Shown piece after piece: positions 2,260-32,582 of a stretch of 34,848 nucleotides of DNA (position 1 is the first letter of the stretch; every line of letters starts with the position of its first letter). A model generated the notes under the pieces. The model ran no database searches. It was not told where the DNA came from and saw only the letters and a program-made list of their open reading frames with translations. Source of the DNA: an uncultured bacterium (GTDB taxonomy: Bacteria > Patescibacteriota > Minisyncoccia > Phycocordibacterales > PALSA-1337); the NCBI GenBank assembly GCA_963701025.1, contig OY969557.1, positions 1 through 34,848 on the forward strand, written 5' to 3'. The translations under genes and the position numbers were made by a program.

Positions 2260-2276
2260 AATTGAAAATATCACTC

Positions 2277-2312
2277 GGCCCTGGCACTTCATTGTTGTCA
2301 GGGCTGATTTTT
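2277..2312 (+). terminator. Probable intrinsic terminator after pyrC
   Basis: GGCCCTGGCA/TGTCAGGGCT stem followed by ATTTTT. Confidence 0.55.
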
Positions 2313-2429
2313 ATCTGAAGCTTTACTTTCAGACTATTTTAAAGTAGTGTTCCGCTAGAAGTCAGGAGGTTCTGACAAGCCAAACACGCAGCTTTATAGC
2401 GTTATAAACGAACATTGAAAGGAATAAAT

Positions 2430-3161: not shown

Positions 3162-3190
3162 ATTTCCCTCAACAACAAAAGGAAAAGTGT

Positions 3191-10737: not shown

Positions 10738-10765
10738 ACCTGACTTTACTTTAAAAATAATGATA

Positions 10766-10825
10766 AAGGTATGACGCAACTCGTCTTAGAAGCCTAGGGC
10801 GTCCGAATAACTCAAGGTTGGTAAT
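10766..10825. repeat. Bipartite site, degenerate copy 2 (downstream of the MmeI-like gene)
   Basis: AAGGTATGACGCA at 10766-10778 and GTTGGTAAT at 10817, spacing matching the other copies. Confidence 0.55.
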
Positions 10826-10882
10826 CATATCGACACAGTCGACCAATTTTATGGCTAATTCTCTTAATTCGAGCTCATTTAT

Positions 10883-10919
10883 GGGCGGAAAACAAGCTGT
10901 TGGTAACTCGGCTTCGCAA
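10883..10919. repeat. Right-arm copy GGGCGG...GTTGGTAACTCGGCTTCGCAA
   Basis: Matches GTTGGTAACTGGGCTTCGCAA at 32371-32391 except one base. Confidence 0.65.
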
Positions 10920-11024
10920 AAGGCCTTGTCTAAGCTAGGGTACTGACTAAAGCTCTTTTTTGCGCTATTATTGCCTTACAACTGAATATTAGTAGTTGAC
11001 CTAACCCTTGCGGACTTTCTGTGA

Positions 11025-11165
11025 GGCATGGTCGAAAATCCCGCTAGAGATCAAAGGACTCCTCGTCAGAGTCACTCTAGCGGGTCATACCGGGAAACTG
11101 GTATGGGCAGGGCCGAAAGGTTTTGTCGCGATGGCGAGGAGTCTTTTGACGTTCCAAGACTCCCA
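11025..11165 (+). ncRNA. Candidate structured leader RNA M1, copy 1
   Basis: 10-bp stem 11040-49/11075-84, CATACCGG-GAAA-CTGGTATG, second GAAA hairpin; same layout with different stem sequence at 32465-32582. Confidence 0.6.
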
Positions 11166-11189
11166 CCGTTTAAAACCCGCTAGAGTTTT

Positions 11190-11876
11190 ATGAAAAACTT
11201 CACAAATTTTCTGAATGAAGAGAAAATTAAAGATAACATAGCTTCTTTTGAGAAAGATCATCACCCACTATCGCGTGGCGCCTCGTTTGATTATTGCTTC
11301 AATTATTTTCAAGAATTTACAGACAAGAAAAAAATTGCCAGTAAAGACAATATACAAAAAAGTTGTCTCCACCTGGCTTTTTATTTAGCCAGTTGGGGGA
11401 TGTTAAGAAATTCATTCTTATTACAAAAAAGTATGAAGTATTTTGAACCACTTATGGAATATTTTTCAACAGATGATTGCGACGTCTGGAATATAGACGT
11501 GGATAAATACGATGAAGAAAATATCATTAAATTAACTGAATGCTACGGGAAAATAAAAGATATTTTATTGAAAGGAGAGGACAAAAGACATGAAATGGGT
11601 ACTTTGGTAACAAAAATAATGTTAGGTGTATTTGGCAATGTACCAGCGTTTGATGCGTATTTCAGGAATGGTTTCGGATTTGGTACCTTTAATAAAAAAT
11701 CACTCGTTCACATTAGTGAATTTTATAAGAATGGTAACTACCCAAGACTTATCTCTGATGAAGCAAATAGAATTAAGACTTTTGATTATGATAGTGGAAA
11801 ATCAACCGATAGATCATACACCAGAGCAAAGATAGTAGACGCGATATTTTTTATAGAAGGATTTAATAAACAATAA
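11190..11876 (+). CDS. Conserved hypothetical protein (possible HhH-glycosylase-like fold)
   Basis: Clean 228-aa ORF; LAFYLASWGM and TLVTKIMLGVFGNVPAFD motifs; fold call is inference. Confidence 0.6.
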   Translation: MKNFTNFLNEEKIKDNIASFEKDHHPLSRGASFDYCFNYFQEFTDKKKIASKDNIQKSCLHLAFYLASWGMLRNSFLLQKSMKYFEPLMEYFSTDDCDVWNIDVDKYDEENIIKLTECYGKIKDILLKGEDKRHEMGTLVTKIMLGVFGNVPAFDAYFRNGFGFGTFNKKSLVHISEFYKNGNYPRLISDEANRIKTFDYDSGKSTDRSYTRAKIVDAIFFIEGFNKQ

Positions 11877-16870: not shown

Positions 16871-17008
16871 ATGAAGAAACCAAAGGCCAAGAAGCCAAAA
16901 AAATACACTGAGGAAGAACAAAAGATCATTGATGAGGCGGCGCAACAACTCGCAGAGATTCTTATGGAAGTGATTATAGAAAAACAGAATGTCGCCGGGA
17001 AGAAATAG
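16871..17008 (+). CDS. Small basic/helical protein (45 aa)
   Basis: 3' part of the 16499..17008 ORF from ATG 16871 (MKKPKAKK...DEAAQQLAEILMEV), downstream of a TATACT -10-like box. Confidence 0.5.
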   Translation: MKKPKAKKPKKYTEEEQKIIDEAAQQLAEILMEVIIEKQNVAGKK

Positions 17009-17053
17009 AGGCATGGTTTATATCAGAACATCTTTTCCTAAAAGTCCAGCAAA

Positions 17054-17165
17054 TCGGACAGTCGTACATATGCTCTTGCACTGTCCGAAATGTCCGATTC
17101 GACGCGGTTGAGATGTCTCTTTGTACGATCGTACACGTGTACGATTCACAGGGTGGCCTGTCCGA
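17054..17165. repeat. Cluster of eight TGT(C/A)CGA heptamers
   Basis: Direct at 17082, 17091, 17122, 17138, 17159; inverted at 17054, 17062, 17129. Confidence 0.65.
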
Positions 17166-17263
17166 TTCGTAAAAATTGCCTTGTTATATAAAATTGACCC
17201 CTGACCCGAGTGCCTCAAGGCCAGTCTCAGAAAGATGCTAGAATACCCTTACGGGGCTTGTAC

Positions 17264-18841
17264 TCACGGGTACTTAACCCGACTAGCCCGCAAATTCGCA
17301 AAAAGCGCGAAATCGCTCGAAAAAGGCGAAAGAGAAATACCAAGTGGAGGGCGGGGCGGAATTCCCCCCTGAAACCCCCCTTCCGCCCCGCCCGCATTTT
17401 TGTTGACCGTTTGGGGAATTGCGGGAACAAATGCGAAGGGTGCGCGGGGCGAAAAAACGAGGGTGCGGTCGCGTATGACAAAGTTCGAACCGACTTTTTG
17501 GAAAAAAGATCGGATTTTAGTAGGATCACCCTCATCTGCCACAAACTTGGCTTGCTTACTCGCTTCCAGGAAATTTTTCACTGGTTCGAACCGATTTGTT
17601 GAAACCTGTGCCAAAGATGCTAATTTGTCGTTCAGAGCATGTTTTTCAGTCACCAGTTTGTTTTTGGCATTTTGATATTCTGGAAGCGTTAGAGCGTTCT
17701 CTAGGTATGCTGTCATGAGTTTGTCGAGCTTCGAATCGACGATGGTAATTTCTGCATTCACTTTATCAGTCTCATTTTTCAGAAGTTTATCATTTTCAGA
17801 TCTATCTTTTTCATTTTCAATTATTAGCCAATCAGCTACCTCGTCAGCCAGGGAGTATTTTTTCAGTTCCGTTTGCATTTGCGAAGTGATGACCTCCTCA
17901 CGAACGTATTTTTGATTGCAAACTCCTTTTCGTTTTGTGCATCGCAAATAATTATGACCTTTTTGTGTTTCTGTGGTTATGAAGCAACCGCATTCACCGC
18001 AATGGAATAGGCCTCTGTAGTCATAAGATTTCAGTTCTGACGTTTTAGGTTTGCTTTTTCTGGTCATAACCTCTTGAACATCGTCAAAAAGCTTTTTCGA
18101 GATAATAGGTTCATGCTTACCTTCATAAAATTCTCCACCATATCGAATAAGTCCATGGTAAAAGGGATTTTTCAAAAGATATTGATAGTTGGAAATAGAA
18201 AGCACGCCATCGCCAGTGCCTTTTAGACCAAGATCATTGATTTTTCTCCTGACCTGGGCGAATGTGAAATTGCCAGTGGCATATGCCTCAAAAGTCTTTT
18301 TCACGAGTATGGATTTTACCGGATCAACGACGATAGTTTTTATCTTTTTATCATTCAAATATCCCAGTGGTGCTTTTTGAGGCCATATTCCATTCTTCAA
18401 TTTCTGTCTGTGTCCGCGTTTGATGTTCTCTGACAAGTTGTCTACATAATATTTACTCTGGCCAAAGGAGATTGAAAGCATAAATTTTCCCTGCGGAGTT
18501 GCATCAAACCAGAACGTCGGGAATTTCAGATCAGTGATCTTGCCAATATCCACAAGGTAAATGACACGACCACCATCAATGGAGTTACGAGCGAGTCTGT
18601 CAGGGTGCCATGCGAGGATGCCGGAGGCCTCACCGGCTTCTATGCGGTCCAACATTTCAGCGAAAATAGGCCTGCCAGGTACTTTGGCGGTTTGTTTCTC
18701 TATAAAAGTATCGACAACATCAATTTTTTCCTTTCTAGCGAGCTCACGCAGTTCTGCCAACTGGTCAGGCAGGCTTCTGATTTGATGATCTTTGTCATCA
18801 GTCGATTTTCTGGCGTAAATAAAATATTTTTTATCACTCAT
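17264..18841 (-). CDS. Large serine recombinase LSR2 with coiled-coil insertion
   Basis: YFIYARKST, HPDRLARN, CGECG...YLRC Zn ribbon, coiled coil; its 3' end spans the predicted crossover. Confidence 0.95.
   Translation of the reverse strand: MSDKKYFIYARKSTDDKDHQIRSLPDQLAELRELARKEKIDVVDTFIEKQTAKVPGRPIFAEMLDRIEAGEASGILAWHPDRLARNSIDGGRVIYLVDIGKITDLKFPTFWFDATPQGKFMLSISFGQSKYYVDNLSENIKRGHRQKLKNGIWPQKAPLGYLNDKKIKTIVVDPVKSILVKKTFEAYATGNFTFAQVRRKINDLGLKGTGDGVLSISNYQYLLKNPFYHGLIRYGGEFYEGKHEPIISKKLFDDVQEVMTRKSKPKTSELKSYDYRGLFHCGECGCFITTETQKGHNYLRCTKRKGVCNQKYVREEVITSQMQTELKKYSLADEVADWLIIENEKDRSENDKLLKNETDKVNAEITIVDSKLDKLMTAYLENALTLPEYQNAKNKLVTEKHALNDKLASLAQVSTNRFEPVKNFLEASKQAKFVADEGDPTKIRSFFQKVGSNFVIRDRTLVFSPRAPFAFVPAIPQTVNKNAGGAEGGFQGGIPPRPPLGISLSPFSSDFALFANLRASRVKYP
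17293..17474 (-). repeat. Arm A (182 bp), inverted copy of 19123-19304
   Basis: Core-proximal ~120 bp identical; about 9 substitutions in the distal ~60 bp (manual alignment). Confidence 0.9.
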
Positions 18842-18907
18842 GAATATATTTTACCAAATTTTTGTAAAGTCAAACAGATGTTCATAACTTTTTTCACTAA
18901 ACTCTAT

Positions 18908-19070
18908 CGAGAAGCGGTCGACTTCCGCTTTTAGCTACAAGTCCCGAGCGGATGTCGGTGCGGCGAAGCACCCAGCGGTCGCTCCAAGCGACGGCTGGGG
19001 TTTTCGTGCGGAGCCGTTCGGACATCCGCGTAAAAATATCGTTAAAGCGGAAGTGGGCCGCTTCGACTCA
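18908..19070 (+). other. Long branched hairpin M2, copy 1
   Basis: Outer 21-bp stem GAAGCGGTCGACTTCCGCTTT/AAAGCGGAAGTGGGCCGCTTC; compensatory changes relative to 29067-29231. Confidence 0.7.
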
Positions 19071-19122
19071 CTTCTTGTAATTTAATTTTTATAAAAAATT
19101 ATATTTCATTTCCTTCCCCTCC

Positions 19123-19360
19123 ACGCGACCGCGCCCTCGTTTTTTTGCCTCGCGCGCCTTTTGCATTTGTCCCCGAAATTCCCAAAACGGTCAACAAAAA
19201 TGCGGGCGGGGCGGAAGGGGGGTTTCAGGGGGGAATTCCGCCCCGCCCTCCACTTGGTATTTCTCTTTCGCCTTTTTCGAGCGATTTCGCGCTTTTTGCG
19301 AATTTGCGGCAGTTTTTACTTGAAGTTCGAACATTTTTTATGGAAAATCCTCATAATTGA
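19123..19360 (+). pseudogene. 3' remnant of an LSR2-like gene in unrecombined form
   Basis: Translates as PRAPFAFVP...LFANLRQFLLEVRTFFMENPHN*; matches the LSR2 tail up to LR; no upstream recombinase body. Confidence 0.6.
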
Positions 19361-19503
19361 AGTGAAAGAAAATGGTGTCGCTCCGCGACGCTGTTTTCTT
19401 GTGGGGTTGCGCCTTCGCTCCGCTCGGCGCGTGGAGAGGGCGTGCGCGGCAGGAGGGGTGTGGGGAGGAATGCCGCGCCGCCCTGCTGATTTTTTCGCGC
19501 GGG
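19123..19503 (+). repeat. Joined A-core-B (attP-like) copy, inverted relative to the element ends
   Basis: A 19123-19304, TGCGG 19305-19309, B 19310-19503. Confidence 0.85.
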
Positions 19504-19572
19504 GTGAAGGGGAGAAAATAAGCGGCCAATGACCTTGAATTTCTGTCAAAAAGTGATAAAGTAGCTTTATAC

Positions 19573-20184
19573 ATGAACGAAATAATCTATATACTCACGA
19601 ATGAAGCCATGCCCGGCTACGTCAAGATCGGAAAGACTACAAATAATCTTGACCAGCGCGTCAGAGAATTGAGCGCTTCTACCAGCGTTCCTTTGCCGTT
19701 TACGGTTTTCTATGCCTGTAAAGTAAAAGACGCGAAGTTCGTCGAACACCAGCTTCATGACGCTTTTGATAACAATCGGGTAAATCCTCGACGAGAATTT
19801 TTTCAGATCGCTCCGGAACGAGTAGTCGCGGCTCTAAAATTGGCGGAAATCGAAAATATCACTCCCAAGAAGGATCTGATCGAATCGGAAGAAGACCGTG
19901 AGGCTCATAAGGAAGCCCTTGAGCGGCGTGGAAGATTCAATTTTGAGCTAGCCAAAATTCCGTTGGGGGCAGAGATTTATTTCAGCCGCGATGAAAACAA
20001 AAAAGCTAAAGTCGTCGATCTGCATTCATCGCAGTCTATCGAATATAACGGAGAGATCACCAGCCTTTCAACCTCCGCCCAAAGAATCCTAGGAGCCGGT
20101 TATGGTGTAGCCGGTACAGATTACTGGATGTACGACGGCGAGACCCTCGATGAGCGCAGGAGAAGGCTTGAGAATGAAGAGTAA
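19573..20184 (+). CDS. T5orf172/GIY-YIG-like nuclease-domain protein
   Basis: IYILTNEAMPGYVKIGKT..QR..L, EHQLH, REFF. Confidence 0.85.
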   Translation: MNEIIYILTNEAMPGYVKIGKTTNNLDQRVRELSASTSVPLPFTVFYACKVKDAKFVEHQLHDAFDNNRVNPRREFFQIAPERVVAALKLAEIENITPKKDLIESEEDREAHKEALERRGRFNFELAKIPLGAEIYFSRDENKKAKVVDLHSSQSIEYNGEITSLSTSAQRILGAGYGVAGTDYWMYDGETLDERRRRLENEE

Positions 20185-20190
20185 AAATAT

Positions 20191-20424
20191 ATGGGTATAT
20201 TCAATACGAAACAATCAATTGAGGAAATGGAGAAGGACATAGATAATTGCGTTCCAGAAATGCAAAAGGTTGGAGCGATGTTTATAAATTTTAAGTTACA
20301 GAAAAAAATTATTGAGGATCAGAATGTATACAATAGTAAACAACTTTTTTGGTCTCGCTTCTTAACAATAGTTACAGCGGTTCTTGCGTTAGCAACGATT
20401 GCTTTGGTTCTAGTTACAAAATAA
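20191..20424 (+). CDS. Small protein with C-terminal transmembrane helix
   Basis: Operonic spacing; hydrophobic C-terminus LTIVTAVLALATIALVLV. Confidence 0.65.
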   Translation: MGIFNTKQSIEEMEKDIDNCVPEMQKVGAMFINFKLQKKIIEDQNVYNSKQLFWSRFLTIVTAVLALATIALVLVTK

Positions 20425-20428
20425 TTTT

Positions 20429-21559
20429 ATGGCAAGTAAATCTTCAAATAAAAATTTACATAAGGCCAGCGAAGCAAAGAAAGATGAGTTTTATACCCAG
20501 CTTGTTGATATTGAAAAAGAACTCAAGCATTACAAGGAACAATTTCGTGGCAAGGTTGTCTATTGCAATTGTGATGATCCATTCGAGAGTAATTTTTTTA
20601 AATATTTTGCCGCAAATTTTAATGCTCTCGGTCTCAAAAAGTTAATAACTACCAGTTTTACAAAGTCACCAATTGCCGGAGGACAATTGCCACTTTTTGA
20701 AGTCAAAGGCTTGAAACCGAAAGGTAAAGAGCCATTTAAGATTGAAATCAATGAAGTCCCAGATTCTAATTCTGATGGCGCCATCGGTCTCTCTGATGTC
20801 GAATGGCTGTTAAGGCACGATGCGAATGTTTCTACGCCACTCAAAACAGATGGTGATTTTCGTAGTGAGGAATGTATTGAACTGCTAGATGGGGCAGATA
20901 TTGTTGTAACTAACCCGCCATTTTCTCTGTTTCGGGAATATCTAGCGCAATTGGTGGAATTTAATAAGAAATTTCTCATTATCGGTAATGTCAATTCAAT
21001 TACCTACAAAGAGTGCTTTAAACTTATCAAAGATAACAAAATGTGGCTTGGAGCAAGTATTCACAGTGGTGATCGTGAGTTTCGAGTGCCGGACGATTAC
21101 CCTCTAAATGCTGCTGGTTCTAGGATTGATAGTGATGGTCATAAATATATCCGCGTCAAAGGAGTACGTTGGTTCACTAACCTAGACTACGAAGAACGTC
21201 ATGAAGATTTGGTGCTCTATAAAAAATATTCTCCAGAAGAATATCCGAAGTATGAAAACCATGATGCCATTAATGTTAACAAAACTTCCGAAATCCCAGT
21301 TAATTATGCTGGTGCAATAGGTGTACCGATTACTTTTCTCGATAAATATAATCCAGAACAGTTTGAGATTATTGGACTAGGTATATCAAATTCAGGAAAA
21401 GAGATTGGGGTTAAGCCGTACAAAGCAGAACATAAAAAATACAGGAAGGAAATTCAAAAAAGAGGTGCTGTTGATGGTGACTTATACATGATTACGAATG
21501 GAATCGTTGATGTTCCTTATGCACGAGTTATTATAAAAAATATGAAAGTATTAAAATAA
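20429..21559 (+). CDS. EcoRI-methylase-family adenine MTase
   Basis: KKDEFYT, VYCNCDDP..SNF, GDFRSEEC, VVTNPPFSLFREY, GVPITFLDKYNPEQFEI. Confidence 0.88.
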   Translation: MASKSSNKNLHKASEAKKDEFYTQLVDIEKELKHYKEQFRGKVVYCNCDDPFESNFFKYFAANFNALGLKKLITTSFTKSPIAGGQLPLFEVKGLKPKGKEPFKIEINEVPDSNSDGAIGLSDVEWLLRHDANVSTPLKTDGDFRSEECIELLDGADIVVTNPPFSLFREYLAQLVEFNKKFLIIGNVNSITYKECFKLIKDNKMWLGASIHSGDREFRVPDDYPLNAAGSRIDSDGHKYIRVKGVRWFTNLDYEERHEDLVLYKKYSPEEYPKYENHDAINVNKTSEIPVNYAGAIGVPITFLDKYNPEQFEIIGLGISNSGKEIGVKPYKAEHKKYRKEIQKRGAVDGDLYMITNGIVDVPYARVIIKNMKVLK

Positions 21560-21560
21560 T

Positions 21561-22667
21561 ATGAAAATTGATTTACATAAAATTTCAATCCGCAAGATAA
21601 TAGTTGGCTATAAAGACAGTGCCGAAGAAGGTGTGACTGCTTATAACGGCAAACTTGATATTCGTCCAAAATATCAGCGTGAGTTTGTGTACAAAGAAAA
21701 ACAACGTGATGCAGTAATAGAAACAATCAAAAACAACTTTCCGCTAAATGTGATGTATTGGATGATTAGGGATGATGGTGGTTATGAAGTGTTGGACGGC
21801 CAACAACGCACCATCAGTATTGGTCAATATGTTAGTGGAGATTTTTCACTGAATGACCGCTTTTTTCATAATCTTACCAAAGAGGAGCAGGATAAAATTT
21901 TAGATTATGAACTAATGATTTATTTCTGCGAGGGTACCGATAAAGAACGGTTAGATTGGTTCAGAATAATTAACATCGCCGGCGAGAAGCTGACCGACCA
22001 AGAGATTCGCAACGCGGTTTATACTGGGCCGTGGCTTTCTGATGCCAAATTGAAATTCAGTAAATCGAATTGTGCGGCATACTTACTGGCGAACGACGAC
22101 GGCCAGTTGGTTAGCGGTTCCCCGATTCGCCAAGAGTACTTAGAAACCGCGCTCTCGTGGATCAACGATGGCAAAATCGAAGATTACATGGCCAAGCATC
22201 AACACGACAAAAATGCCGACAAATTGTGGCAATATTTTCAGGATGTCATTGTCTGGGTAAGGACGACATTCACGAATTACCGTAGAGAAATGAGTAGTGT
22301 ACAGTGGGGCGAGCTGTATAACCAATTCAAGGATAAAAAACTGAATGCCACAAAGCTTGAAGCCGAGGTCAAAAAGCTGATGCAAGATGAAGATGTCACC
22401 AAAAAGTCCGGCATATACCCATATATTTTGACGAGAGACGAGAAGCATCTCTCGATTCGTGCTTTCACAGACAAGATGAAGCGTGAGGCATATGAAAGAC
22501 AAGACGGGATCTGTCCGTTTTGTAAAGCTGAGAACAGGAAAAAGAAATGGGAAATTGAGGAAATGGAGGCCGATCACATTACACCTTGGCACGAAGGAGG
22601 AAAGACGATAGCAGAGAACTGTCAGATGCTCTGTAAGCAGGACAACCGGACTAAATCTGGGAAATAA
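21561..22667 (+). CDS. DUF262 (GmrS-like) + C-terminal HNH endonuclease
   Basis: KYQRE and LDGQQRT DUF262 motifs; CPFC...EADHITPW..GG.T...NCQMLC...N HNH. Confidence 0.88.
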   Translation: MKIDLHKISIRKIIVGYKDSAEEGVTAYNGKLDIRPKYQREFVYKEKQRDAVIETIKNNFPLNVMYWMIRDDGGYEVLDGQQRTISIGQYVSGDFSLNDRFFHNLTKEEQDKILDYELMIYFCEGTDKERLDWFRIINIAGEKLTDQEIRNAVYTGPWLSDAKLKFSKSNCAAYLLANDDGQLVSGSPIRQEYLETALSWINDGKIEDYMAKHQHDKNADKLWQYFQDVIVWVRTTFTNYRREMSSVQWGELYNQFKDKKLNATKLEAEVKKLMQDEDVTKKSGIYPYILTRDEKHLSIRAFTDKMKREAYERQDGICPFCKAENRKKKWEIEEMEADHITPWHEGGKTIAENCQMLCKQDNRTKSGK

Positions 22668-22669
22668 AG

Positions 22670-24037
22670 ATGATCAGCATGAATACCGAGAATTCAAAAT
22701 GGAAGAAAAAGAACTTAGCGATAGGAGATCTTTCATTGTGGGATGAAAATGCCCGTTTTTCTGATCAATACTTCGGTCTTTTAGAAGAAGATTTGCTGAA
22801 CTATTTTCTGACTGGAAAATTTCATGTTCTGAAGTTAGCAAGTGAGATGGAAAAAGACTCTGACCTTCCTCAATTAGAAAAAATTGTGGTTTGGAATGCC
22901 AACGATCGCAATGTGGTGCTCGAAGGTAATAGAAGAATCGCTGCATATAAACTGTTGGCAAATCCTAAACTGGCTGGTGCTCAGGGGGATAAATTCGCTC
23001 AGATAGGATCAAAAATCGGTATCTCGGAGGATTTTGAAGTTGAATGTCTTGTGACCGAAGACCTAGAACAGGGCTATCGGTTTATCGAGAGAAAACATCT
23101 GAATCAAAATAACGAAGTATCCTGGGGGTCTAATGAAATTGCCCATCATAAAGAGCGACGTGGCAAAGCTGGCGAGAAGGAATTGATAAGGGTTGGTATC
23201 ACGAAGGTTGTCAGTGGCCTTGGAATAGCTAAGGAGCTAAAAGAAGCGGTGCTTGGTCCGGGTTACGTGACTACTTTCTGGAGATTAACTGGCCAGACTC
23301 CTGCTCAGGAATTTTTCGGTTATTCTTTTGATAATGATAAAAAACTAAAGGTAAAAGATAGTAATTTCGGTAAGAAGCTTGAGGTCATTGTCTGGGATGT
23401 ACTCAAGAGCGGCCAACACAATGGAAAATTATTCTCTCGCTTGAACAACAAAGAGATACATGATTATTTGAAAAATATTTCTGATAAGGATTATGATAGG
23501 GCGGCAAATGAGATAAAGGTAGCGGAGAGTAAAAAGCAGGACGGCCTTTTTGGTCAATCGGGCATAACTACGGAATACAACTTTAGAAGGAAAACGCCAG
23601 TTACAAAAACGGGGAATGATCTTTTCGGCAGAACTCTTGTTCTACAGACAGGAAAGGTCAATGACATGTACCGAGCTCTTGTAGATATCGATAAGAAATC
23701 CCAAAACAATGACGCGGTATTGCCGTTCCTAGGCATGGCACTCCGTCTTTTAGTAGAAGTCGCCGCGCGCGTGTATTATGAGAACCAGAAAGATGGTAAG
23801 AATGCTAAGAAGGATCAGGTTTGTGAGATGTTTCTCAAAGAAGCCAAGAAAGAACTTAAACAACACCAGAAAAATGATATTTCGCTCACTAATGAATGGC
23901 TTTCTGATCAGAGAAATCTAGGAGCGATTCTAGATAAATATGCTCACGGAAGCATTATCTGTAAGCGTGCTGATGTATTGAAAGACTCTTTTATCGTAGC
24001 TGATATTTTGGATTTCTATTTCGGAAAGAAGTCATAA
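22670..24037 (+). CDS. ParB/Srx-like N-terminal domain + helical C-terminal domain (HEPN-like, motif degenerate)
   Basis: LWDENARF, VVLEGNRRIAA; C-terminal LRLLVE...LDKYAHG; directly upstream of a Dam-type MTase. Confidence 0.65.
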   Translation: MISMNTENSKWKKKNLAIGDLSLWDENARFSDQYFGLLEEDLLNYFLTGKFHVLKLASEMEKDSDLPQLEKIVVWNANDRNVVLEGNRRIAAYKLLANPKLAGAQGDKFAQIGSKIGISEDFEVECLVTEDLEQGYRFIERKHLNQNNEVSWGSNEIAHHKERRGKAGEKELIRVGITKVVSGLGIAKELKEAVLGPGYVTTFWRLTGQTPAQEFFGYSFDNDKKLKVKDSNFGKKLEVIVWDVLKSGQHNGKLFSRLNNKEIHDYLKNISDKDYDRAANEIKVAESKKQDGLFGQSGITTEYNFRRKTPVTKTGNDLFGRTLVLQTGKVNDMYRALVDIDKKSQNNDAVLPFLGMALRLLVEVAARVYYENQKDGKNAKKDQVCEMFLKEAKKELKQHQKNDISLTNEWLSDQRNLGAILDKYAHGSIICKRADVLKDSFIVADILDFYFGKKS

Positions 24038-24042
24038 ATTTT

Positions 24043-24897
24043 ATGCAAAAAATACCACAAACAAGAAATCAAAAATTTCACTATAGCCCATTACGATATC
24101 CTGGCGGAAAGACTTTCTTGTTTCCTTTTTTTGATGATGTTATAAAGACTAACGGGTTGAAAAAAGTCACTTATGTCGAACCATTTGCTGGTGGTGCAGG
24201 TGCTGCTCTTGCTCTGCTATTATCTGGAAAAGTCGACCGTATTGTGATCAATGACTTGGATAACGCCATTTTTGCTTTCTGGAAATCTGTAGTCTTTGAT
24301 TCAGTCAAGTTTATTAAAAAAATCAGATCTACCCCCGTTACGATCAGGGAATGGAGGAGGCAAAAAGCGATTTATAATGATCCGAAAGCCGGTCTATTTA
24401 ATCTTGGCTTCGCGACTTTTTTCCTCAACAGAACCAATACTTCTGGTATTCTGAACGGTGGACCCATTGGCGGATTGAAACAGCAGGGGAAGTATAAGAT
24501 TGACGCAAGATTCAATAAAGAAGCGTTAATCGAGCGAATACAAAAGATTGCTTTTTATAAAGATAAGATATCGGTCTTTAACAAAGATGGTGTTAATCTT
24601 ATTGGTGAGTATTTGAATAAAAAGAATGCTTTCATATATCTTGATCCGCCTTATTTTGAAAAGGGTGCTAGTCTTTATCTGAACCATTATAAAAAAGAGG
24701 ATCATGAAGCTCTTGCACGGAAGCTCAACGGTAACCCAGATGCTTTTTGGCTTCTGACTTACGATAATAAGAAAGAAATTAAAGCGCTTTACCCAGAGCG
24801 AAAAATCATTAACTTTTCTCTGAATTACAATGCTTACATATCTCGAAAAGGCAGAGAGCTGATGATTCTTTCTGACATCTTTGCAAAACAGATATGA
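24043..24897 (+). CDS. Dam-family (D12 class) N6-adenine MTase
   Basis: SPLRYPGGK, YVEPFAGG, FFLNR, YLDPPY. Confidence 0.92.
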   Translation: MQKIPQTRNQKFHYSPLRYPGGKTFLFPFFDDVIKTNGLKKVTYVEPFAGGAGAALALLLSGKVDRIVINDLDNAIFAFWKSVVFDSVKFIKKIRSTPVTIREWRRQKAIYNDPKAGLFNLGFATFFLNRTNTSGILNGGPIGGLKQQGKYKIDARFNKEALIERIQKIAFYKDKISVFNKDGVNLIGEYLNKKNAFIYLDPPYFEKGASLYLNHYKKEDHEALARKLNGNPDAFWLLTYDNKKEIKALYPERKIINFSLNYNAYISRKGRELMILSDIFAKQI

Positions 24898-25193
24898 AAC
24901 CAGAATCCAAACAGGAAATCTTGAAGCGACGGAAAGAGCTCGAGCAAGAACTCGTGGAGATGCTAAAGGAGACCGAAAGCGATTTTGAGCTTGCCGATGT
25001 GCTCGAAGCCATATACGAAGAAGAGGAGAACGACGATATGACGAAGATCATAGCCATGTTCGACAACGGCGACATGAGCCAATTGAGCAATGTCCTCGAA
25101 CTGGTTACCGATGCTTGGAACTATTTCCCCCATAAAGCTCTCGGCAGGATATCCCCGGCGGAGATGATGGTGGAGTATAATCATAAGCAATGA
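24894..25193 (+). CDS. Small acidic hypothetical protein
   Basis: ATGA overlaps on both sides; AWNYFPHKALGRISP resembles Xre/MbcA-type C-termini (weak). Confidence 0.65.
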   Translation: MKPESKQEILKRRKELEQELVEMLKETESDFELADVLEAIYEEEENDDMTKIIAMFDNGDMSQLSNVLELVTDAWNYFPHKALGRISPAEMMVEYNHKQ

Positions 25194-25834
25194 GCACCAA
25201 CATCGATTATTGGGAAAAAGTCCTTGAGAATCCGACGCCTGCGTTCAAGGCTCTTTTTGACGCTGAATTGATTTACATTCGGTCGCGCGTTCCCGGGAAT
25301 TCCAGAGTTCTTGAGATCGGTTGTGGCAACGGCAGGAATATCAAATCTATAGCTGAAGTGACCAAGGACATCATCGGAATCGACAACGATTCGAAAGCCG
25401 TGGAAGACGCAAAGAATAATCTGGCCGGATTTTCAGGCGTAAAGATAATGCTGGCCGACGCTCTCGATCTGCCATTTGCGGATAAATCTTTTGACGTCCT
25501 GATATTCCTAGATACTCTGGTCAACATGAAAGAAAACAAAGTTCAAACATTGAAGGAGATGAGCAGGGTGTTGACGGACGCCGGCAAAATAATCATCAGT
25601 GTGTATTCCGAGGATGCTTTCGACGCACGCATGGACATTTACAGGATAGTGAATGCTCCCATAAACAAGACCGAAGGTACGAAAGTCACGTTCGATGAGA
25701 GCCTGGCGGCGAATGTATCGGAGCAGTTTAGCAAAGAAGACATAGAGGGCTTGGCCGATCAGTCTGGATTGAATCTTGTCGATTGTAAAAAAGTGCCAGG
25801 AATCGCGTATATTTGTACGCTTGTTAAAAAATAA
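25190..25834 (+). CDS. Class I SAM-dependent methyltransferase
   Basis: VLEIGCGNG, GID, ADALDLPFADKSFDV, RVL...G. Confidence 0.88.
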   Translation: MSTNIDYWEKVLENPTPAFKALFDAELIYIRSRVPGNSRVLEIGCGNGRNIKSIAEVTKDIIGIDNDSKAVEDAKNNLAGFSGVKIMLADALDLPFADKSFDVLIFLDTLVNMKENKVQTLKEMSRVLTDAGKIIISVYSEDAFDARMDIYRIVNAPINKTEGTKVTFDESLAANVSEQFSKEDIEGLADQSGLNLVDCKKVPGIAYICTLVKK

Positions 25835-25836
25835 AA

Positions 25837-25874
25837 CCCGCCTACGGTTAGAACGTAGTGCGGGTCGTGACATT
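25837..25874. repeat. Hairpin direct repeat CCCGCYTACG..GAACGTA..GCGGGNCGTGACATT; probable terminator at this copy
   Basis: Second copy at 27540-27576; this copy has a T-tract on the minus strand. Confidence 0.7.
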
Positions 25875-25903
25875 GATGATCTAAGTTTCGAGCACGCTGG
25901 TGG

Positions 25904-26068
25904 TTATATATACCCCTCCAAACTTCGCCGCAACCGAGCAGTTGCTCGGTCGTTGGCTTTTGTGTCGGGGGTAATGTCCGTGATATGGCGAGCTACGCCC
26001 TTACGGAGCGCTTTAAAATGTGCTCCCACAAAGTCCGTATTTGAGGCATGTAATCTGCGATTTTTCAT
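25904..26068 (-). CDS. Possible small basic protein (54 aa)
   Basis: ATG 26068 after an A-rich leader; fits the gene/leader periodicity of this block. Confidence 0.35.
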   Translation of the reverse strand: MKNRRLHASNTDFVGAHFKALRKGVARHITDITPDTKANDRATARLRRSLEGYI

Positions 26069-26187
26069 TCTTACGAGATAGGGTTTCTTTTTTCTTTCCG
26101 TAAGCTGCACTATTGCCGTGCCCTCGAGCGTAACTGAACAAAGTCTCATGACAACCCCATGGAGACTTGTTGAAGGTAATTTTGTTT

Positions 26188-26829
26188 TCACAGATTTCCT
26201 TTCATTTCTTTCGGTTGATGGTTGATTCGCCGCATGACTAATCCTAAGAGCGGCACCGACGAGTGAAGCAGAACGCAGTTTACCTGATATACAAGGTCAC
26301 ACCACTGGTTGTTCCATCGCAGAAAAACTACAATGGTCGCCAGGACGTAACTTGTTACCCACAGTAACCACGGTCTTGGTTGTTCACATTCCCACGGTCG
26401 CGGATTTTCCGCGGTCGGTCTTTTCGTCAATGCTCGCCACATTGGAATGAATCCTGCGAAGATGGCGAACTGGACGATCAGATTGGCGTATTTGGCGGAG
26501 CCGTAGTGTTTCCACACGACCGACGCGATGACGCCGATCAGCAGAGCGACGAAGTCCCACTTGTCCGGCCACTTGAATTTCTTCAGATAGACGGCGAGGA
26601 AGAACGTCGCGATGCACAAGCCGATGTTGAGGAGCGGAATGACGCTTTTCCAAACGTCCCCGCTCATCTTTAGATAGCTCGTGGTTGAGATTGCCGAGAC
26701 GACAGACCAAATGAGCCAAGTGGCACCATTCGGTTTCGTCGCGCCCTTGATGACCTGACGATTGTAGTCGAGGTAGGCAAGGGTATAGGCGACGCCGGAG
26801 GCAATCGCCAGTATATGGCTGATTTGCAC
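26188..26829 (-). CDS. Multi-pass membrane protein
   Basis: GTG start after GAAAGG; about 6-7 hydrophobic segments; two PQ-loop-like halves (weak). Confidence 0.75.
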   Translation of the reverse strand: MQISHILAIASGVAYTLAYLDYNRQVIKGATKPNGATWLIWSVVSAISTTSYLKMSGDVWKSVIPLLNIGLCIATFFLAVYLKKFKWPDKWDFVALLIGVIASVVWKHYGSAKYANLIVQFAIFAGFIPMWRALTKRPTAENPRPWECEQPRPWLLWVTSYVLATIVVFLRWNNQWCDLVYQVNCVLLHSSVPLLGLVMRRINHQPKEMKGNL

Positions 26830-26872
26830 AAGGTGCCTTTCGTTATAGGTTTATGTTGTTGTCAGAGAGCGA

Positions 26873-26915
26873 AACTCTCAGGGGCCGCGACCTAATGTCG
26901 TAGACCCATTAGAGT
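26873..26915 (-). promoter_or_regulatory. Conserved leader hairpin M3, copy 1
   Basis: Minus strand ACTCTA.TGGGT..ACGAC-loop-GTCGCG...CCTGAGAGTT; repeated at 27496-27539 with compensatory stem changes. Confidence 0.6.
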
Positions 26916-26960
26916 GCCCCACATTACTGTGAGGCCGAGATTACTTCAATCTCGAAAGTG

Positions 26961-27455
26961 TTATGAAACTGAAACCAGCGGATGAGAAGCACAGTAGGCT
27001 TCGATCTCGTCGTGGCGCTTCTTCAACTGGTATGCAGCCTGTTGCATTGCTTGTTCATCGCTGTCTTGGCCATGGCCCCAGTTGTCCCTGAATGGGATGG
27101 CTGTTCCAGCGTAGAGAACATCTCCAGGCTTGTCGCCAATGCGGATAGAAATCCTCGCCGCAGTTTCCAGCTGGTATTCACCACCAGGATTTCCACGGAT
27201 GGGACACGTGCCACAAATGGTGACGAGTTCCCATTCAATTGTCCCTGCCCACCACCCCATCTCTTTTTCTAGGAGTAGGGCAAGCTTGGTCCAATTGGCG
27301 AACATTTCACCAAGGTGTTCCGGTGTCGGAACTACATCCTTCCAAGCTCCTGTAGCAGGCATAAACATGCCAGGGAGTTTTTTCCACCAATCACCATCGT
27401 ATACGATACCCTGCGGAGGTGTCACCGTGCGATGGCTCATTGTTGTTTTTAGCAT
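26961..27455 (-). CDS. Hypothetical protein
   Basis: 164-aa ORF, GAAAGG upstream; no motif recognised. Confidence 0.7.
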   Translation of the reverse strand: MLKTTMSHRTVTPPQGIVYDGDWWKKLPGMFMPATGAWKDVVPTPEHLGEMFANWTKLALLLEKEMGWWAGTIEWELVTICGTCPIRGNPGGEYQLETAARISIRIGDKPGDVLYAGTAIPFRDNWGHGQDSDEQAMQQAAYQLKKRHDEIEAYCASHPLVSVS

Positions 27456-27495
27456 ACTTTAACCTTTCGTTGTTGATTGTTGACTCAAAGAACTG

Positions 27496-27539
27496 AACTC
27501 TCAGGATTCGCGACGGAAGTGTCGTGAACCCAGTAGAGT
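27496..27539 (-). promoter_or_regulatory. Conserved leader hairpin M3, copy 2
   Basis: Same motif as 26873-26915. Confidence 0.6.
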
Positions 27540-27576
27540 CCCGCTTACGATTCGAACGTAAGCGGGGCGTGACATT
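27540..27576. repeat. Hairpin direct repeat, copy 2
   Basis: 10-bp perfect stem CCCGCTTACG/CGTAAGCGGG; matches 25837-25874. Confidence 0.7.
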
Positions 27577-27584
27577 TTTGTGTT

Positions 27585-28274
27585 CTAAGGAGCGATTGGC
27601 CAGCAGTATTCGTTAGCTGGATTGTATGTCCACCAAGACGGTGACCAATTCATTGATACTGCCACCGAAACCAATGCGAGGACAACGAGCGAAGCTGCCG
27701 GAGCATACCAACCCCACATCTGCATCTCCTGTCTGGCCTGGAAGACTGCTTTGCCAATGGCCGAGAACTCGACCGGACAAAATGAAGATTTCCAGATGCC
27801 AGTGAAGAGTAGGCGGTCACTCTTGCATTCAAGCGCTTCGAATCGCCAAGTGCAGAGAGCTTTCCCTCTGATTACTCTGCGATCAGCAAGGATGAAACGG
27901 CAATAGAATCTCATGCCGACCCTGACCGGATGCTTGAAGTCCACTTCCTCGTATCTTGAGGCGATGACCTCCGCTCTTTCGACGAACCGAAAGAACCGGT
28001 GAACACATGCCTTTGTCAGAGAAAGTGCCAAATCCCCGCAGAGTGTAAGACCACCGAGATCGGACTTATACAACAGAGCAGTGAACGGATTGATGTGAAC
28101 CGGATTCCAGTCACGATCAATGATTGCATGCAAGATTAGTTTCCACAGGCTGGCGCGCACGGGCTTGCATTGCCACGTGTGCCCGATGGGGACCTTTGCC
28201 AGATCCGAGGCGTTGTTGAGAATGAGTGTTTTCAAAATTATCTCCTGTTTGTTTTGGCGGATTTTAAGCTCCAT
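27585..28274 (-). CDS. MaoC-like hotdog-fold dehydratase with C-terminal TM helix
   Basis: DWNPVHIN motif, VDFKHPVRVG strand; start ATG 28274 (the longer ORF start lies within the promoter). Confidence 0.7.
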   Translation of the reverse strand: MELKIRQNKQEIILKTLILNNASDLAKVPIGHTWQCKPVRASLWKLILHAIIDRDWNPVHINPFTALLYKSDLGGLTLCGDLALSLTKACVHRFFRFVERAEVIASRYEEVDFKHPVRVGMRFYCRFILADRRVIRGKALCTWRFEALECKSDRLLFTGIWKSSFCPVEFSAIGKAVFQARQEMQMWGWYAPAASLVVLALVSVAVSMNWSPSWWTYNPANEYCWPIAP

Positions 28275-28298
28275 GTAGAGCACCAAAACTCTGTCGCA

Positions 28299-28327
28299 AT
28301 TATAGCATAACAGCATAGTAAAGTCAA
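28299..28327 (-). promoter_or_regulatory. Near-consensus sigma70 promoter
   Basis: TTGACT-N17-TATAAT with extended -10 TG. Confidence 0.75.
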
Positions 28328-28376
28328 GCAAAATCGAGGCTTAAAATAATGGCTATTTTGGACTATAATTGAAGCC

Positions 28377-28979
28377 ATGGATGATCAAAATACGCCTATA
28401 GAGCCAGCCACAGAAGCACCAGCGCAGGCTCAAGAATCTGCCCCAACTCCTATTGAGCCGGAATCTAGCCAGCCAAATGGCTCTACGCCTACCGATTTGC
28501 CCCCTGAGGCCCCAGAATCGCCTATAAACGCTTCTAGTGATACTCCCGTTGAAGATCAAAATCAAGGGGTAAACCAGCCAGAAAGCAACACCCCAGAAGA
28601 GCCAATTTCTACTCCAAATGAGCCAGAAAATCCAGTAGATGATCAATCAGCTCCAGTGCAATCTGTACCTGTCTCAGCGCCGACGCTACAGACTCCGACA
28701 GCCTCACAACCACAACCGTCGGCGCTGGAGAACCAGACCAGCTTCATCCGCGCACTTCTCGCTAAAGCGAACGCAAAACTTGGTTCAAACAGACAAAAGA
28801 AGCTCGACAAGGTTATGCTGACAGCACAAAAGAAAGGATTCATAACCAACGAACAAGCTCAAGAACTTCTGCATTGCTCCGATGCCACTGCCACTAGATA
28901 TCTTTCAAAATTGGTTCAGCAAGGAAGATTGAATCGCACAGACGGATCGCACTGGGTGAAATATATTTTTGTGCGCTGA
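28377..28979 (+). CDS. C-terminal wHTH protein with long Pro/Glu/Ser-rich disordered N-terminus
   Basis: ITNEQAQELLHCSDATATRYLSKLVQQGRL DeoR-like HTH. Confidence 0.8.
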   Translation: MDDQNTPIEPATEAPAQAQESAPTPIEPESSQPNGSTPTDLPPEAPESPINASSDTPVEDQNQGVNQPESNTPEEPISTPNEPENPVDDQSAPVQSVPVSAPTLQTPTASQPQPSALENQTSFIRALLAKANAKLGSNRQKKLDKVMLTAQKKGFITNEQAQELLHCSDATATRYLSKLVQQGRLNRTDGSHWVKYIFVR

Positions 28980-29044
28980 ATCTTGCGGCTCAGATGGTCA
29001 AACCTCTTGCGGATCAAATGGTGGATTTGAGCCGCAAGGTTTTC
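28979..29044. repeat. Iterated operator-like block R1 (2 direct + 1 inverted CTTGCGGMTCARA)
   Basis: Near-identical block at 29251-29315. Confidence 0.8.
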
Positions 29045-29066
29045 TAGATTTCTTTCTTCTTTCAAC

Positions 29067-29231
29067 CGAGAAACGGTCGACTTCCGCTTCTCACCACGAG
29101 TTCTGAGCGGATGTTTGTGCGGCGTAGCACTGCACGGTCGCCTCGGGCGACGGTGCAGGTTTCCGTGCGAAGCCGTTCTGACATCCGCGTAATGACTTTA
29201 TCTGAAGCGGAAGTGGGCCGCTTCGAGTCAC
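29067..29231 (+). other. Long branched hairpin M2, copy 2
   Basis: Covarying copy of 18908-19070. Confidence 0.7.
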
Positions 29232-29250
29232 CGGACTTTCATGCTAGGAT

Positions 29251-29315
29251 AATCTTGCGGATCAGATGGCAGAATGGCTTGCGGATCAAATGGTGGATTT
29301 GAGCCGCAAGGTTTC
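29251..29315. repeat. Iterated block R2
   Basis: Direct repeat of 28979-29044. Confidence 0.8.
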
Positions 29316-29322
29316 CTAAATA

Positions 29323-29516
29323 CCCGCGCGAAAAAATCAGCAGGGCGGCGCGGCATTCCTCCCCACACCCCTCCTGCCGCGCACGCCCTCTCCACGCGCC
29401 GAGCGGAGCGAAGGCGCAACCCCACAAGAAAACAGCGTCGCGGAGCGACACCATTTTCTTTCACTTCAATTATGAGGATTTTCCATAAAAAATGTTCGAA
29501 CTTCAAGTAAAAACTG
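29323..29516 (-). repeat. Arm B (194 bp), inverted copy of 19310-19503
   Basis: No difference seen by eye; the ORF track gives identical translations in both places. Confidence 0.9.
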
Positions 29517-29579
29517 CCGCACTTAGGTTTTATTATCGGACTATGTCGAGGCCTTGATAAATAGGCCTTGTTTGGAATC

Positions 29580-30985: not shown

Positions 30986-32303
30986 TTACACCACCTCCAC
31001 CACTCCCTTCGTGATCTTGAGTTTCGAGCGGAAGCATCCCATAAGCTCGCGCTTCTCCTCGTTCGTGCCCTCCTTGAGGATGTATTTCGCGTAGGTCTTG
31101 ATGTCCACTTCCTCGTGCGATGCGCCTGGTTTGCCGAGTCCGAGCACCGTGCGTTGGAATTTGTTGAAGCGCTTGAGCTCGTCCTCGAACTTGTAGCGGA
31201 TGCCGTGCTCGTTGAATTCGAGCTTGCCCAGAAGACCAGTTAGCTGTTCGATCAGCACTTCCTCGCGCAAATATTTGTTACCTCTGCAATTTTTGTCGCG
31301 GGTGCGCCCGCAGCCGTAGTACACATATCTTGCGGTCGTGCCGTCTTTCAGTTGCTTGTATTTCTCCTCGGCCGATATGCACGATCCGCATGCTCCGCAG
31401 GTCATCAGTTTCGTGAAGGCGAACTCGTGGCTTTCTCGCTGGATACCGTCGCGCTTGAGCCGCGCTTGTACTTTGTCGAAGAGCTCTTGTGTCACGAGTG
31501 GCTCATGCTTGCCCTGATACCAGTTGCCGCTCTTCTTCGGGAACTCGAAGATGCCGTGATAGAAGGGATTTTGAAGAGTTCGATATACATTGCCGAGGGA
31601 AAGCGGCTTGTTGCCGGTCGTGTGGAAGTTGAGCTCGAAGCGGAGCCAGTGGTATACCTTCCGACCAGACCATTCCTCGTGTGCCACTTTCTCGAACATC
31701 TTCTTGATGACATGTCCTCGCTCGGGGTCGATGATCACCTGGCTCTTGCGATCGGCGATCCGCTGATTCAGGTATCCGGTCGGAGCGGTGCCGGGCCGGT
31801 ATCCCATCTCGCATCGCGTTCGCAGTCCGCGCTTCACGTTGATACCTCGGTTGTCGTTCTCGAACTTCGCCTGCGATCCGAGAATCATCAAGAGGAATTT
31901 CTCGTTCGGGTTATTGCGAAAACTTCTGCCCGTACGTCCGGATCTCGAGAAGCTTTCCAGCGTCCATGAGGTCGACGATCTTGCCGAGGTCACCTGCGTT
32001 ACGGCTGATGCGGTCCGGCGCCCACGTGAGGATGCCGTTATACTTCTCATCCTTGATCTCCTCGACAATCTCGTTGAAGATCGGCCGTTGGCCGGTCTCC
32101 TTGGCCGAGTGCGACTCTCGCTTCATGGCCACGATCTCCAAGTCCTCGCGCTCGGCGAGCTGGAGCATCTCCTTTACCTGGCTGTCTATGGAGAGGACTT
32201 GGCGTTCCTCCGATTCCGTCGATTTTCTGGCATAAAGGCAGTATTTCACCTTTACGGGGCTTGCCGGTTTGGGTCCAGGCCCCAACGGCCCTTGTGATTG
32301 CAT
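30986..32303 (-). CDS. Large serine recombinase LSR3, paralog of LSR1, one +1 frameshift near 31915-31925
   Basis: KYCLYARKSTESEERQVLSIDSQ in one frame, FRNNPNEKFLLMILGSQAK...CGACG in the next; collinear with LSR1. Confidence 0.9.
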
Positions 32304-32320
32304 ATGTGTCATACAGCTAC

Positions 32321-32391
32321 AAGGGATGACGCAGACCGCTAAGGAAGTCCAGATCCTTTGAAAGGGCGGAGTTGGTAACTGGGCTTCGCAA
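32321..32391. repeat. Bipartite site copy 3 with GGCTTCGCAA right arm
   Basis: Matches 7915-7976 and 10899-10919. Confidence 0.7.
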
Positions 32392-32464
32392 TCACTTGCT
32401 TTTATGGTACAGTTTCGACACAACCGAATATGTGAAAAGTAGCCTAAACCCTCGAGAAATCGGC

Positions 32465-32582
32465 GGCATGGCGAAAAACCAGTAACGGATAGAGAACCCA
32501 TCATATGGGGTCACCGTTACTGGTCATATCGGGAAACTGGTATGGGTGCCGCAAGGCATCACCCATGTGGTGGGCTTTGTGT
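32465..32582 (+). ncRNA. Candidate structured leader RNA M1, copy 2
   Basis: 11-bp stem 32478-88/32514-24, CATATCGG-GAAA-CTGGTATG, GTGCC-GCAA-GGCAT. Confidence 0.6.

Follow-up and report, generated by a model that had tools for sequence, protein, structure and literature searches.

The stretch of DNA analysed here (the window, 34,848 nt) spans positions 1-34,848 of the forward strand of contig OY969557.1 in assembly GCA_963701025.1, from an uncultured Patescibacteriota (PALSA-1337) bacterium. Positions 17288-29521 of the window are a 12.2-kb integrated large serine recombinase (LSR) element, a mobile defence island, which holds the recombinase gene LSR2, a cargo module and, between the two, a complete spare attachment site (attP) in inverted orientation that we termed X.

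A whole-window repeat search returned exactly two pairs of long inverted repeats. The arms of the first pair, arm a (17288-17474 and 19123-19309), are 187 nt long with 95% identity, and all nine of their mismatches fall within the 62 nt distal to the core, the core-proximal 125 nt being perfect; the arms of the second pair, arm b (19305-19503 and 29323-29521), show 100% identity over 199 nt. The two pairs overlap in the 5 nt TGCGG at 19305-19309, and the complement CCGCA stands at both outer ends (17288-17292 and 29517-29521). From left to right, the order is outside-core'-a' at the left junction, a-core-b in the opposite orientation at X, and b'-core'-outside at the right junction, with segments of 1648 and 9819 nt between the arms, and excision would create a junction of which X is the reverse complement. 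Chance as the origin of this layout is excluded, given the length and identity of the repeats and their recurrence in more than 100 independently assembled relatives. The features of the element are:

17264-18841, minus strand: LSR2, 525 amino acids, the tail-less integrated form, with Pfam domains Resolvase (PF00239), Recombinase (PF07508) and Zn_ribbon_recom (PF13408)
17288-17292, no strand: attR core, CCGCA on the plus strand, the left junction of the element
17288-17474, minus strand: arm a at attR, with the final 70 LSR2 codons before the crossover; a GC-rich hairpin and then a T-run on the plus strand
17293-19304, no strand: LSR module, 2012 bp from the attR core to the core of X; predicted to be invertible, from a homologue at tRNA-Lys found in both orientations
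19123-19503, plus strand: X, the complete spare attP (a-TGCGG-b), in the orientation opposite to attR and attL, with an intact LSR 3' end reading ...FANLR/QFLLEVRTFFMENPHN and then a stop codon (the slash marks the crossover)
19305-19309, no strand: core of X, TGCGG, where the two repeat pairs overlap
19310-29516, no strand: cargo module, 10,207 bp between cores
29323-29521, minus strand: arm b and core at attL, the same sequence as in the b half of X (100% identity), holding 17 LSR tail codons
29517-29521, no strand: attL core, CCGCA, the right junction of the element

An initial annotation of the window had described 17288-29521 as an integrated LSR element with a core at each outer end and a second, inverted attP at an internal A-TGCGG-B join. 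Coordinates and repeats confirm this description, including the outer and inner geometry of cores and arms. It did not contain two further points, namely that the LSR gene spans attP and that the architecture is conserved in a family.

The inverted attachment site is a family hallmark

For comparison, 160 loci with related recombinases were fetched, 80 from genomes and 80 from metagenomes (loci are numbered with the prefix L, proteins with P). The internal inverted attP is a conserved hallmark of this family and no accident of the window locus, as the following features recur:

Abutting the LSR 3' end, opposite strand: a tRNA gene (mostly Ser, also Gln and Lys), in 112 of the 132 loci with enough downstream DNA
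Around the LSR gene: the inverted repeat a/a' (45-212 nt), in 123 of the 138 loci with enough upstream DNA
Abutting a' with a 4-6-nt overlap: the b/b' pair, enclosing a variable cargo of 1.7-10 kb, in 30 or more of the 55 loci with at least 3 kb further upstream

This layout is retained among LSRs down to 55-60% identity to LSR2, and it is present in the complete chromosome L055 and on contigs of several hundred kb. Every collection searched held hundreds of matches to the family, except that the viral collection held only two, on which ground a prophage family was rejected. Close relatives all came from genomes of Patescibacteria, or Candidate Phyla Radiation (CPR), and the elements form a large CPR-specific family of small LSR islands that insert at the 3' ends of tRNA genes. 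LSR2 itself is identical to the database protein P0128, which is borne on an 876-kb contig; an exact-protein look-up of LSR2 and two cargo proteins in the contig index found none. No description of a layout with an inverted spare attP was found in the literature searched.

The two arms of a pair are identical in 55 of 118 arm pairs, with a range of 95-100%, and the mismatch rate along the arm is flat at ~3% per 20-nt bin. Because near-identical arms are combined with a flat mismatch profile, gene conversion is needed to explain them. The initial annotation had read the identity gradient of the window's arms as a sign of ongoing exchange, which the flat profile of the family does not support. 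In L013 the core of X has been lost and the element persists; X is therefore dispensable for maintenance.

The recombinase gene spans its own attP

The LSR gene runs across its own attP, arm a being the end of the open reading frame and arm b holding ~17 tail codons for a conserved helix. The LSR frame passes arm a and the core without a stop codon in 129 of 132 loci. Read on into the tRNA side, it yields variable junk such as WRRGRDSNPR... (T-arm antisense), and in the window LSR2 ends in ...FANLR/ASRVKYP, the last seven residues being the translated antisense of the target. Read on into arm b, it always meets a stop codon after another 15-22 codons, following the motif [WL]R.xL..[VI]R[TMN][FY]F.[EQ]NP. 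Because attP lies inside the LSR open reading frame, integration removes the C-terminal helix, and X and arm b at attL keep intact copies of it. Judged from these junctions, integration via the gene-attached attP swaps the conserved C-terminal helix for junk that is antisense to the target.

The tail codons show constraint at the protein level. Among 48 distinct b sequences, codon-position entropy was 0.69, 0.58 and 1.10, the third position being the most variable, and the synonymous share of codon differences in b was 27% in frame versus 12-13% in the other two frames. Full-length tailed forms made up 24 of the 120 best database protein clusters. AlphaFold2 (AF2) predicted long helices at residues 333-435, fitting the coiled coil of the LSR architecture. 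The AF2 model of one full-length LSR, with a mean predicted local distance difference test score (pLDDT) of 65.6, has a disordered, arm-a-encoded linker at residues 474-510 and a terminal helix at residues 511-530 (block pLDDT 69-86).

The target supplies one half-site and attR remains reactive

The attB-side target in the window is the following feature:

17195-17292, plus strand: 3' part of a ~100-nt tRNA-like small-RNA gene (start approximate), ending ...GGGTACTTAACCCGACTAGC-CCGCA

A T-arm-like hairpin of this target, CGGG-TACTTAA-CCCG, forms the B-type half-site. ARAGORN, with introns allowed, found no tRNA here, and Rfam gave no match for the target RNA at a permissive threshold across 16900-19700. 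Other members of the family have inserted at this target in L060, L096, L104 and L143, and it is empty, with no LSR nearby, in L177-L179, where a terminator hairpin follows it in L179. The empty site that the initial annotation expected thus exists as an unoccupied target in these relatives, and its exact window-type form (a 25-mer of left outside, core and right outside) is absent from genome_contigs. The ~100-nt target gene is conserved in the window and in L060, L096, L104, L143 and L177-L179, with 5' ...GACCCCGACCCGAG... and 3' ...GGGTACTTAACCCGACTAGCCCGCA, and its product is possibly a tRNA-like RNA of Patescibacteria that has not been described before.

When loci were aligned on the core, the sequence outside the LSR-proximal junction was the reverse complement of a tRNA 3' end (...TGGCGG/AGAGGGAGGGATTCGAACCC...); outside the far junction no sequence was conserved, and the same holds for the left half of attB. 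The distance from the core to the start of the motif TTCGAA is 12 nt on the tRNA side (36 of 56 loci) and 17 nt in arm b (38 of 56 loci), the latter spacing being also that of the window's X. In LSRs, the motif of the second DNA-binding domain (DBD2) is known to lie ~5 bp nearer the centre in attB than in attP half-sites (PMC11722253). Here the shift is seen in right half-sites only. The 12- and 17-nt spacings therefore identify 17288 as attR, 29521 as attL and X as a full attP; attL lacks a B-type half-site.

Tandem arrays are common in the family (L021, L024, L038, L101 and L110, each with two to three family LSRs in one orientation) and occur at tRNA-Ser, tRNA-Gln and tRNA-Lys genes. The upstream LSR reads from its own arm a through the core into the arm b of the downstream element in L101, L024 and L010, and a remnant of such a junction is present in L073. 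Because the sole possible origin of this junction is recombination of an incoming attP with a resident attR, the array sequences show that attB needs the tRNA-side half only and that a later element has used attR as its attB. Array junctions and the non-conserved left half of attB together show that attR stays a substrate in this LSR family.

The recombinase module occurs in both orientations in one relative and X is active in others

One relative provides the module in both states. The truncated LSR P0036 is found on 18 contigs, convergent with tRNA-Lys and beside bipA and type-II-secretion-like genes (L168-L173). P0138, which joins a P0036-type LSR body to a full-length tail, is found on one contig, the 64-kb L167, with the same host genes and with tRNA-Lys upstream of the LSR. 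L167 and L168-L173 match at 99.95% across 9.7 kb of host flank and at 99.5% across the 2-kb LSR module, which stands in opposite orientations in the two. A flipped LSR segment, as the initial annotation had supposed, can be found in relatives. Five single-base markers in the arms give the phase of the exchange: the tRNA-side arm of L167 has the X-side variants of L168, and the LSR-attached arm keeps its own. The arms therefore moved with the module, with the exchange falling within 66 nt of the core.

A second line of evidence concerns X itself. In L022, L054, L076, L139 and L094, the last being the nearest relative of LSR2, a' is joined not to b' but to a second tRNA, and X is therefore recombinationally active; the activity that had been suspected of the internal attP is thus borne out. 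L054 (9765-11569) and L076 (53-2044) are cargo-less LSR modules between convergent tRNA-Ser genes, with an arm a-tRNA junction on both sides. Such a layout is expected if both attPs met two tRNA genes, and it implies chromosome inversion or cassette exchange.

Two other candidates for evidence of flipping were rejected. L174 and L175 were considered as one LSR in both states, but their arms are 100% identical over 186 nt, which makes the path of the contig ambiguous. Nor do breaks of contigs at the arms prove flipping, as inverted repeats longer than k break short-read assemblies.

A proposed self-inverting switch and its alternatives

On balance we lean, if only slightly, towards a reading in which the LSR inverts its own 2-kb module by recombining X with attR and so switches its own C-terminus. 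Arm a is common to both sites, which are opposite in polarity. Recombination of X with attR would be the array reaction carried out between inverted sites of one element; the module would therefore invert and the same site types would be regenerated. With an attP-type and an attR-type site again as products, the inversion would be reversible without a directionality factor. The LSR body would be fused either to the junk tail, which is the common state and that of the window, or to the tail that X keeps intact, with its hairpin, and the outcome would be a self-inverting switch of the recombinase C-terminus. The cargo would stay put because attL lacks a B-type half-site. From the arrangement and types of the sites, X with attR is the likeliest route of module inversion.

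We hold a fuller version of this proposal as tentative, and rather improbable as a whole: the spare attP would flip with attR without a directionality factor, the 16-residue helix on its disordered tether would act in cis as the equivalent of a recombination directionality factor (RDF) or as an autoinhibitor, and the mobility of a whole family of CPR defence islands would depend on the orientation of the module. The functional meaning of the switch is something that we infer. Neither an RDF nor a replication gene was found, nor any route by which a single element could be excised. An operator role for X, in overlap with the LSR promoter, is unlikely, the core of X lying 120-330 nt from the start codon.

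Several observations weigh against a self-inverting switch. To our knowledge, canonical LSRs do not recombine attP with attR. A circle with two attPs that integrates via X would yield the same flipped product as inversion in situ. Downstream of the LSR, the core-proximal arm a, core and arm b of L167 are of a different, window-like variant, and because of this window-like b side a single inversion does not account for all the differences of L167 from L168. Homologous recombination, including exchange between arms of different elements, acts on the arms too, as the chimeric arms of L042, L054, L139 and L167 show, and exchange at the level of the core leaves the 95-100% arm identity unexplained. 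The window shows a single state, with no flip seen in its own population. The AF2 model of the full-length LSR is of modest quality at its mean pLDDT, and any function of the tail is putative.

The alternative that fares best among those without a switch in situ, though we regard it as improbable, is a free circle with two equivalent inverted attPs whose separate integrations produce the two orientations. Integration by the gene-attached attP would give the common truncated form and integration by X the rare intact LSR. The marker phase that this circle predicts does not differ from that of an inversion at the core. L163 and L164, in which the LSR runs through a-core-b into the methylase end or the helix-turn-helix (HTH) end of homologous cargo, match the two isomers expected of it, and full-length LSR forms are common, mostly on short contigs. 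The ends of L163 and L164, however, lie within repeats, so that circle and chromosome are indistinguishable there, and a circular contig has not been demonstrated. Equal attPs should be used about equally, yet the truncated state dominates (112/132 loci overall, and 18 contigs versus one at tRNA-Lys). For a single element no excision route or RDF is known, and the family is nearly absent from viral contigs.

X could also be a passive relic of an old inverted duplication of the LSR 3' end with attP, which we consider doubtful to a greater degree. RecA-dependent conversion would maintain the arms, rare flips would arise by homologous recombination between arms of 120-200 nt, and X would be retained because its hairpins insulate the LSR from cargo and tRNA transcription. 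The 55 identical pairs among 118 and the even spread of mismatches do call for conversion; the chimeric arms of the four loci named above and the persistence of L013 after loss of the core of X speak for a relic as well, and a GC-rich hairpin with a T-run after it is present in every arm. These hairpins were recognised as terminators by eye only, and the terminator scan, their loops exceeding 8 nt, did not list them. A relic hardly accounts for a layout kept across LSRs that are only 55-60% identical, nor for the protein-level constraint on the tail codons. According to the markers, the exchange took place within 66 nt of the core and not in the longer distal arm, X is joined to foreign tRNAs exactly at the core in L076 and L094, which is site-specific and not homologous, and unbiased homologous flipping would not produce the bias of 112/132.

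The initial annotation had gone further and proposed a circle resembling the yeast 2-micron plasmid, in which both segments flip, in the circle and in place, with copy-number amplification as a possible role. We think this very unlikely. After excision, inverted repeats of ~380 bp would indeed separate segments of 1.65 kb and 9.8 kb, and the LSR segment is flipped in one relative. The cargo of integrated copies, by contrast, kept its orientation relative to the LSR in all comparisons of homologous cargo (L001, L002, L009, L014/L015, L044, L070 and L087), and a B-type half-site is lacking at attL. Neither the window cargo nor the small cargos of relatives contained a recognisable replication gene, the recombinase is of the serine and not the tyrosine type, and no circle was seen or demonstrated. 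Cargo flipping, a free circle and amplification are thus all without support.

Finally, an assembly mis-join through the repeats can be set aside as an origin of the internal inverted copy: a short-read assembler cannot fix cargo orientation across b arms that are identical over 199 nt, and L174 is such an ambiguous path, but the a arms differ at nine positions and the same layout recurs in more than 120 independent assemblies, the complete chromosome among them.

Cargo, structured elements and neighbouring genes

According to Pfam, the cargo of the window encodes a T5orf172 protein, an EcoRI-like methylase, a GmrSD_N/HNH nuclease, a Dam-class methylase, an S-adenosylmethionine (SAM) methyltransferase, unknown proteins and an HTH protein. 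Domains for replication or partition were recognised neither here nor among the minimal cargos of relatives. An XRE gene is proximal to X in all four small elements (L030, L045, L055 and L071). The HTH gene (28377-28979, plus strand) encodes a 200-amino-acid protein with weak AbiEi_4 and DeoR HTH matches and reads outward beside attL; it is conserved at the DNA level in the same place in L001, L002, L087 and L164, and its product is a candidate regulator or directionality factor.

L175 (European Nucleotide Archive WOOD18 scaffold) carries at 9338-11554 an LSR module with 86% DNA identity to that of the window and an arm b with 93%. It lies at tRNA-Ser(tga) and has another cargo, with an N6_N4 methylase, a ResIII helicase and an SduA_C nuclease, and the comparison with the window therefore indicates that near-identical recombinase modules shuttle differing defence systems.

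Two copies of a structured element, S, lie within the element:

18903-19071, plus strand: S1, a rod-like structured element of ~165 nt that is antisense to LSR2 and lies upstream of it; fold z of -7.8 (plus strand) and -4.9 (minus strand)
29062-29231, plus strand: S2, second S copy, ~79% identical to S1, flanked by 71-nt direct repeats at 28979-29049 and 29251-29321

Compensatory changes are present in 16 of 43 S pairs, a number reached by 0 of 500 shuffles, and G-U pairs favour the strand opposite the LSR. S gave no match in the same permissive Rfam search of 16900-19700. It occurs, antisense to the LSR and upstream of it, in a long-arm subfamily (the window, L020, L081, L094, L163 and L167-L173), with an attL-side copy in the window and in L168. 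A gene for a protein of 40-58 amino acids is an unlikely identity for S, as the S1 and S2 peptides change non-conservatively where the hairpin compensates. The 71-nt direct repeats around S2 are 87% identical, and each contains two CTTGCGG motifs and one CCGCAAG motif, which are core-like; the repeats may be traces left by insertion of S, or sites to which a protein binds.

LOOT RNA (RF03000) was matched at 71-92 bits in the window (10998-11127 and 32441-32560, both plus strand), in L085 (853-978, minus strand) and in L168 (5140-5251, minus strand). In L085 and L168 it lies in cargo beside the internal attP, and one window copy is just upstream of, and divergent from, a third LSR gene, LSR3. 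LOOT may thus be a cargo RNA of CPR recombinase islands.

Pyrimidine-synthesis genes occupy 188-3934 of the window. Beyond 3934 follows a mosaic of mobile DNA with an MmeI-type enzyme, phage-like genes and three minus-strand LSR genes, which besides LSR2 are one at 6554-7885 and the broken LSR3 at 30986-32504 (open reading frames of 360 and 197 amino acids). Long flanking inverted repeats are found only for LSR2 among the three. Overall, the window looks like an array of islands with different recombinase families.

Significance and comparison with known systems

LSRs are valued in genome engineering as strictly one-way tools. If the half-site attB, the reactive attR and the swapping of the C-terminus hold, they would provide new LSR design principles and testable parts. 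CPR bacteria, or Patescibacteria, have tiny genomes and few described mobile elements; the family carries restriction-modification and other defence cargo and appears to be a main vehicle of defence genes in CPR. The layout also accounts for the frequent contig breaks beside these recombinase genes.

In its domain content, the logic of its cores and the spacing of its half-sites, the element is an LSR integrative element. Judged from site sequences, the apparent departures from known LSR elements are the two attPs, the attP inside the gene and the reactive attR. LSR elements and prophages such as phiC31, Bxb1, A118/LI and SPbeta share with the family a three-domain recombinase, a short core, the reaction of attP with attB to attL and attR, a P-type DBD2 motif ~5 bp farther out and a chromosomal cargo island. 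A typical LSR element has one attP, with attL and attR inert without an RDF, and tRNA-gene 3' ends are the usual target of tyrosine integrases. Here, in contrast, there are two inverted attPs, one of them inside the recombinase open reading frame, an attB of one half-site, an attR that appears reactive, a target at the 3' end of a tRNA gene and no recognised RDF.

The Hin/Gin/Cin/Pin switches, such as the Salmonella H segment, likewise place a serine recombinase gene between inverted sites inside its own invertible segment, which is a predicted one here, and occur in two natural orientations, which in the present family were seen in one relative. Hin-type invertases are small serine recombinases with a C-terminal HTH and a Fis-bound enhancer. 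The present recombinase is a large one of 525 amino acids for which a Fis enhancer is not known, its sites are an attP and an attR rather than two hix-like sites, and what would switch is its own C-terminus, not a neighbouring promoter or tail-fibre gene. Shufflons (Rci/pilV) and the Mu G segment, which are C-terminal-exchange inversion systems, resemble it in that inversion exchanges the 3' end of a gene between coding tails; unlike them, the LSR would have its own tail swapped, and one of its two tails is junk from the insertion target.

Integrases of SSV1-type fuselloviruses also carry attP in the integrase open reading frame, and integration at a tRNA gene splits their gene. They are tyrosine recombinases of archaeal viruses whose gene is split roughly in two and which keep no spare attP, whereas the family described here has a serine recombinase and Patescibacteria hosts, splits off only ~17 codons and keeps a spare attP. 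The 2-micron plasmid (FLP/FRT) is alike in geometry only, and only if the element is excised: a circle with two long inverted repeats that hold recombination sites and separate two unique segments. That plasmid has a tyrosine recombinase, is an autonomous replicon and has a role in amplification; the present element is chromosomal, has no origin or replication gene that was seen, and appears to flip one segment only.

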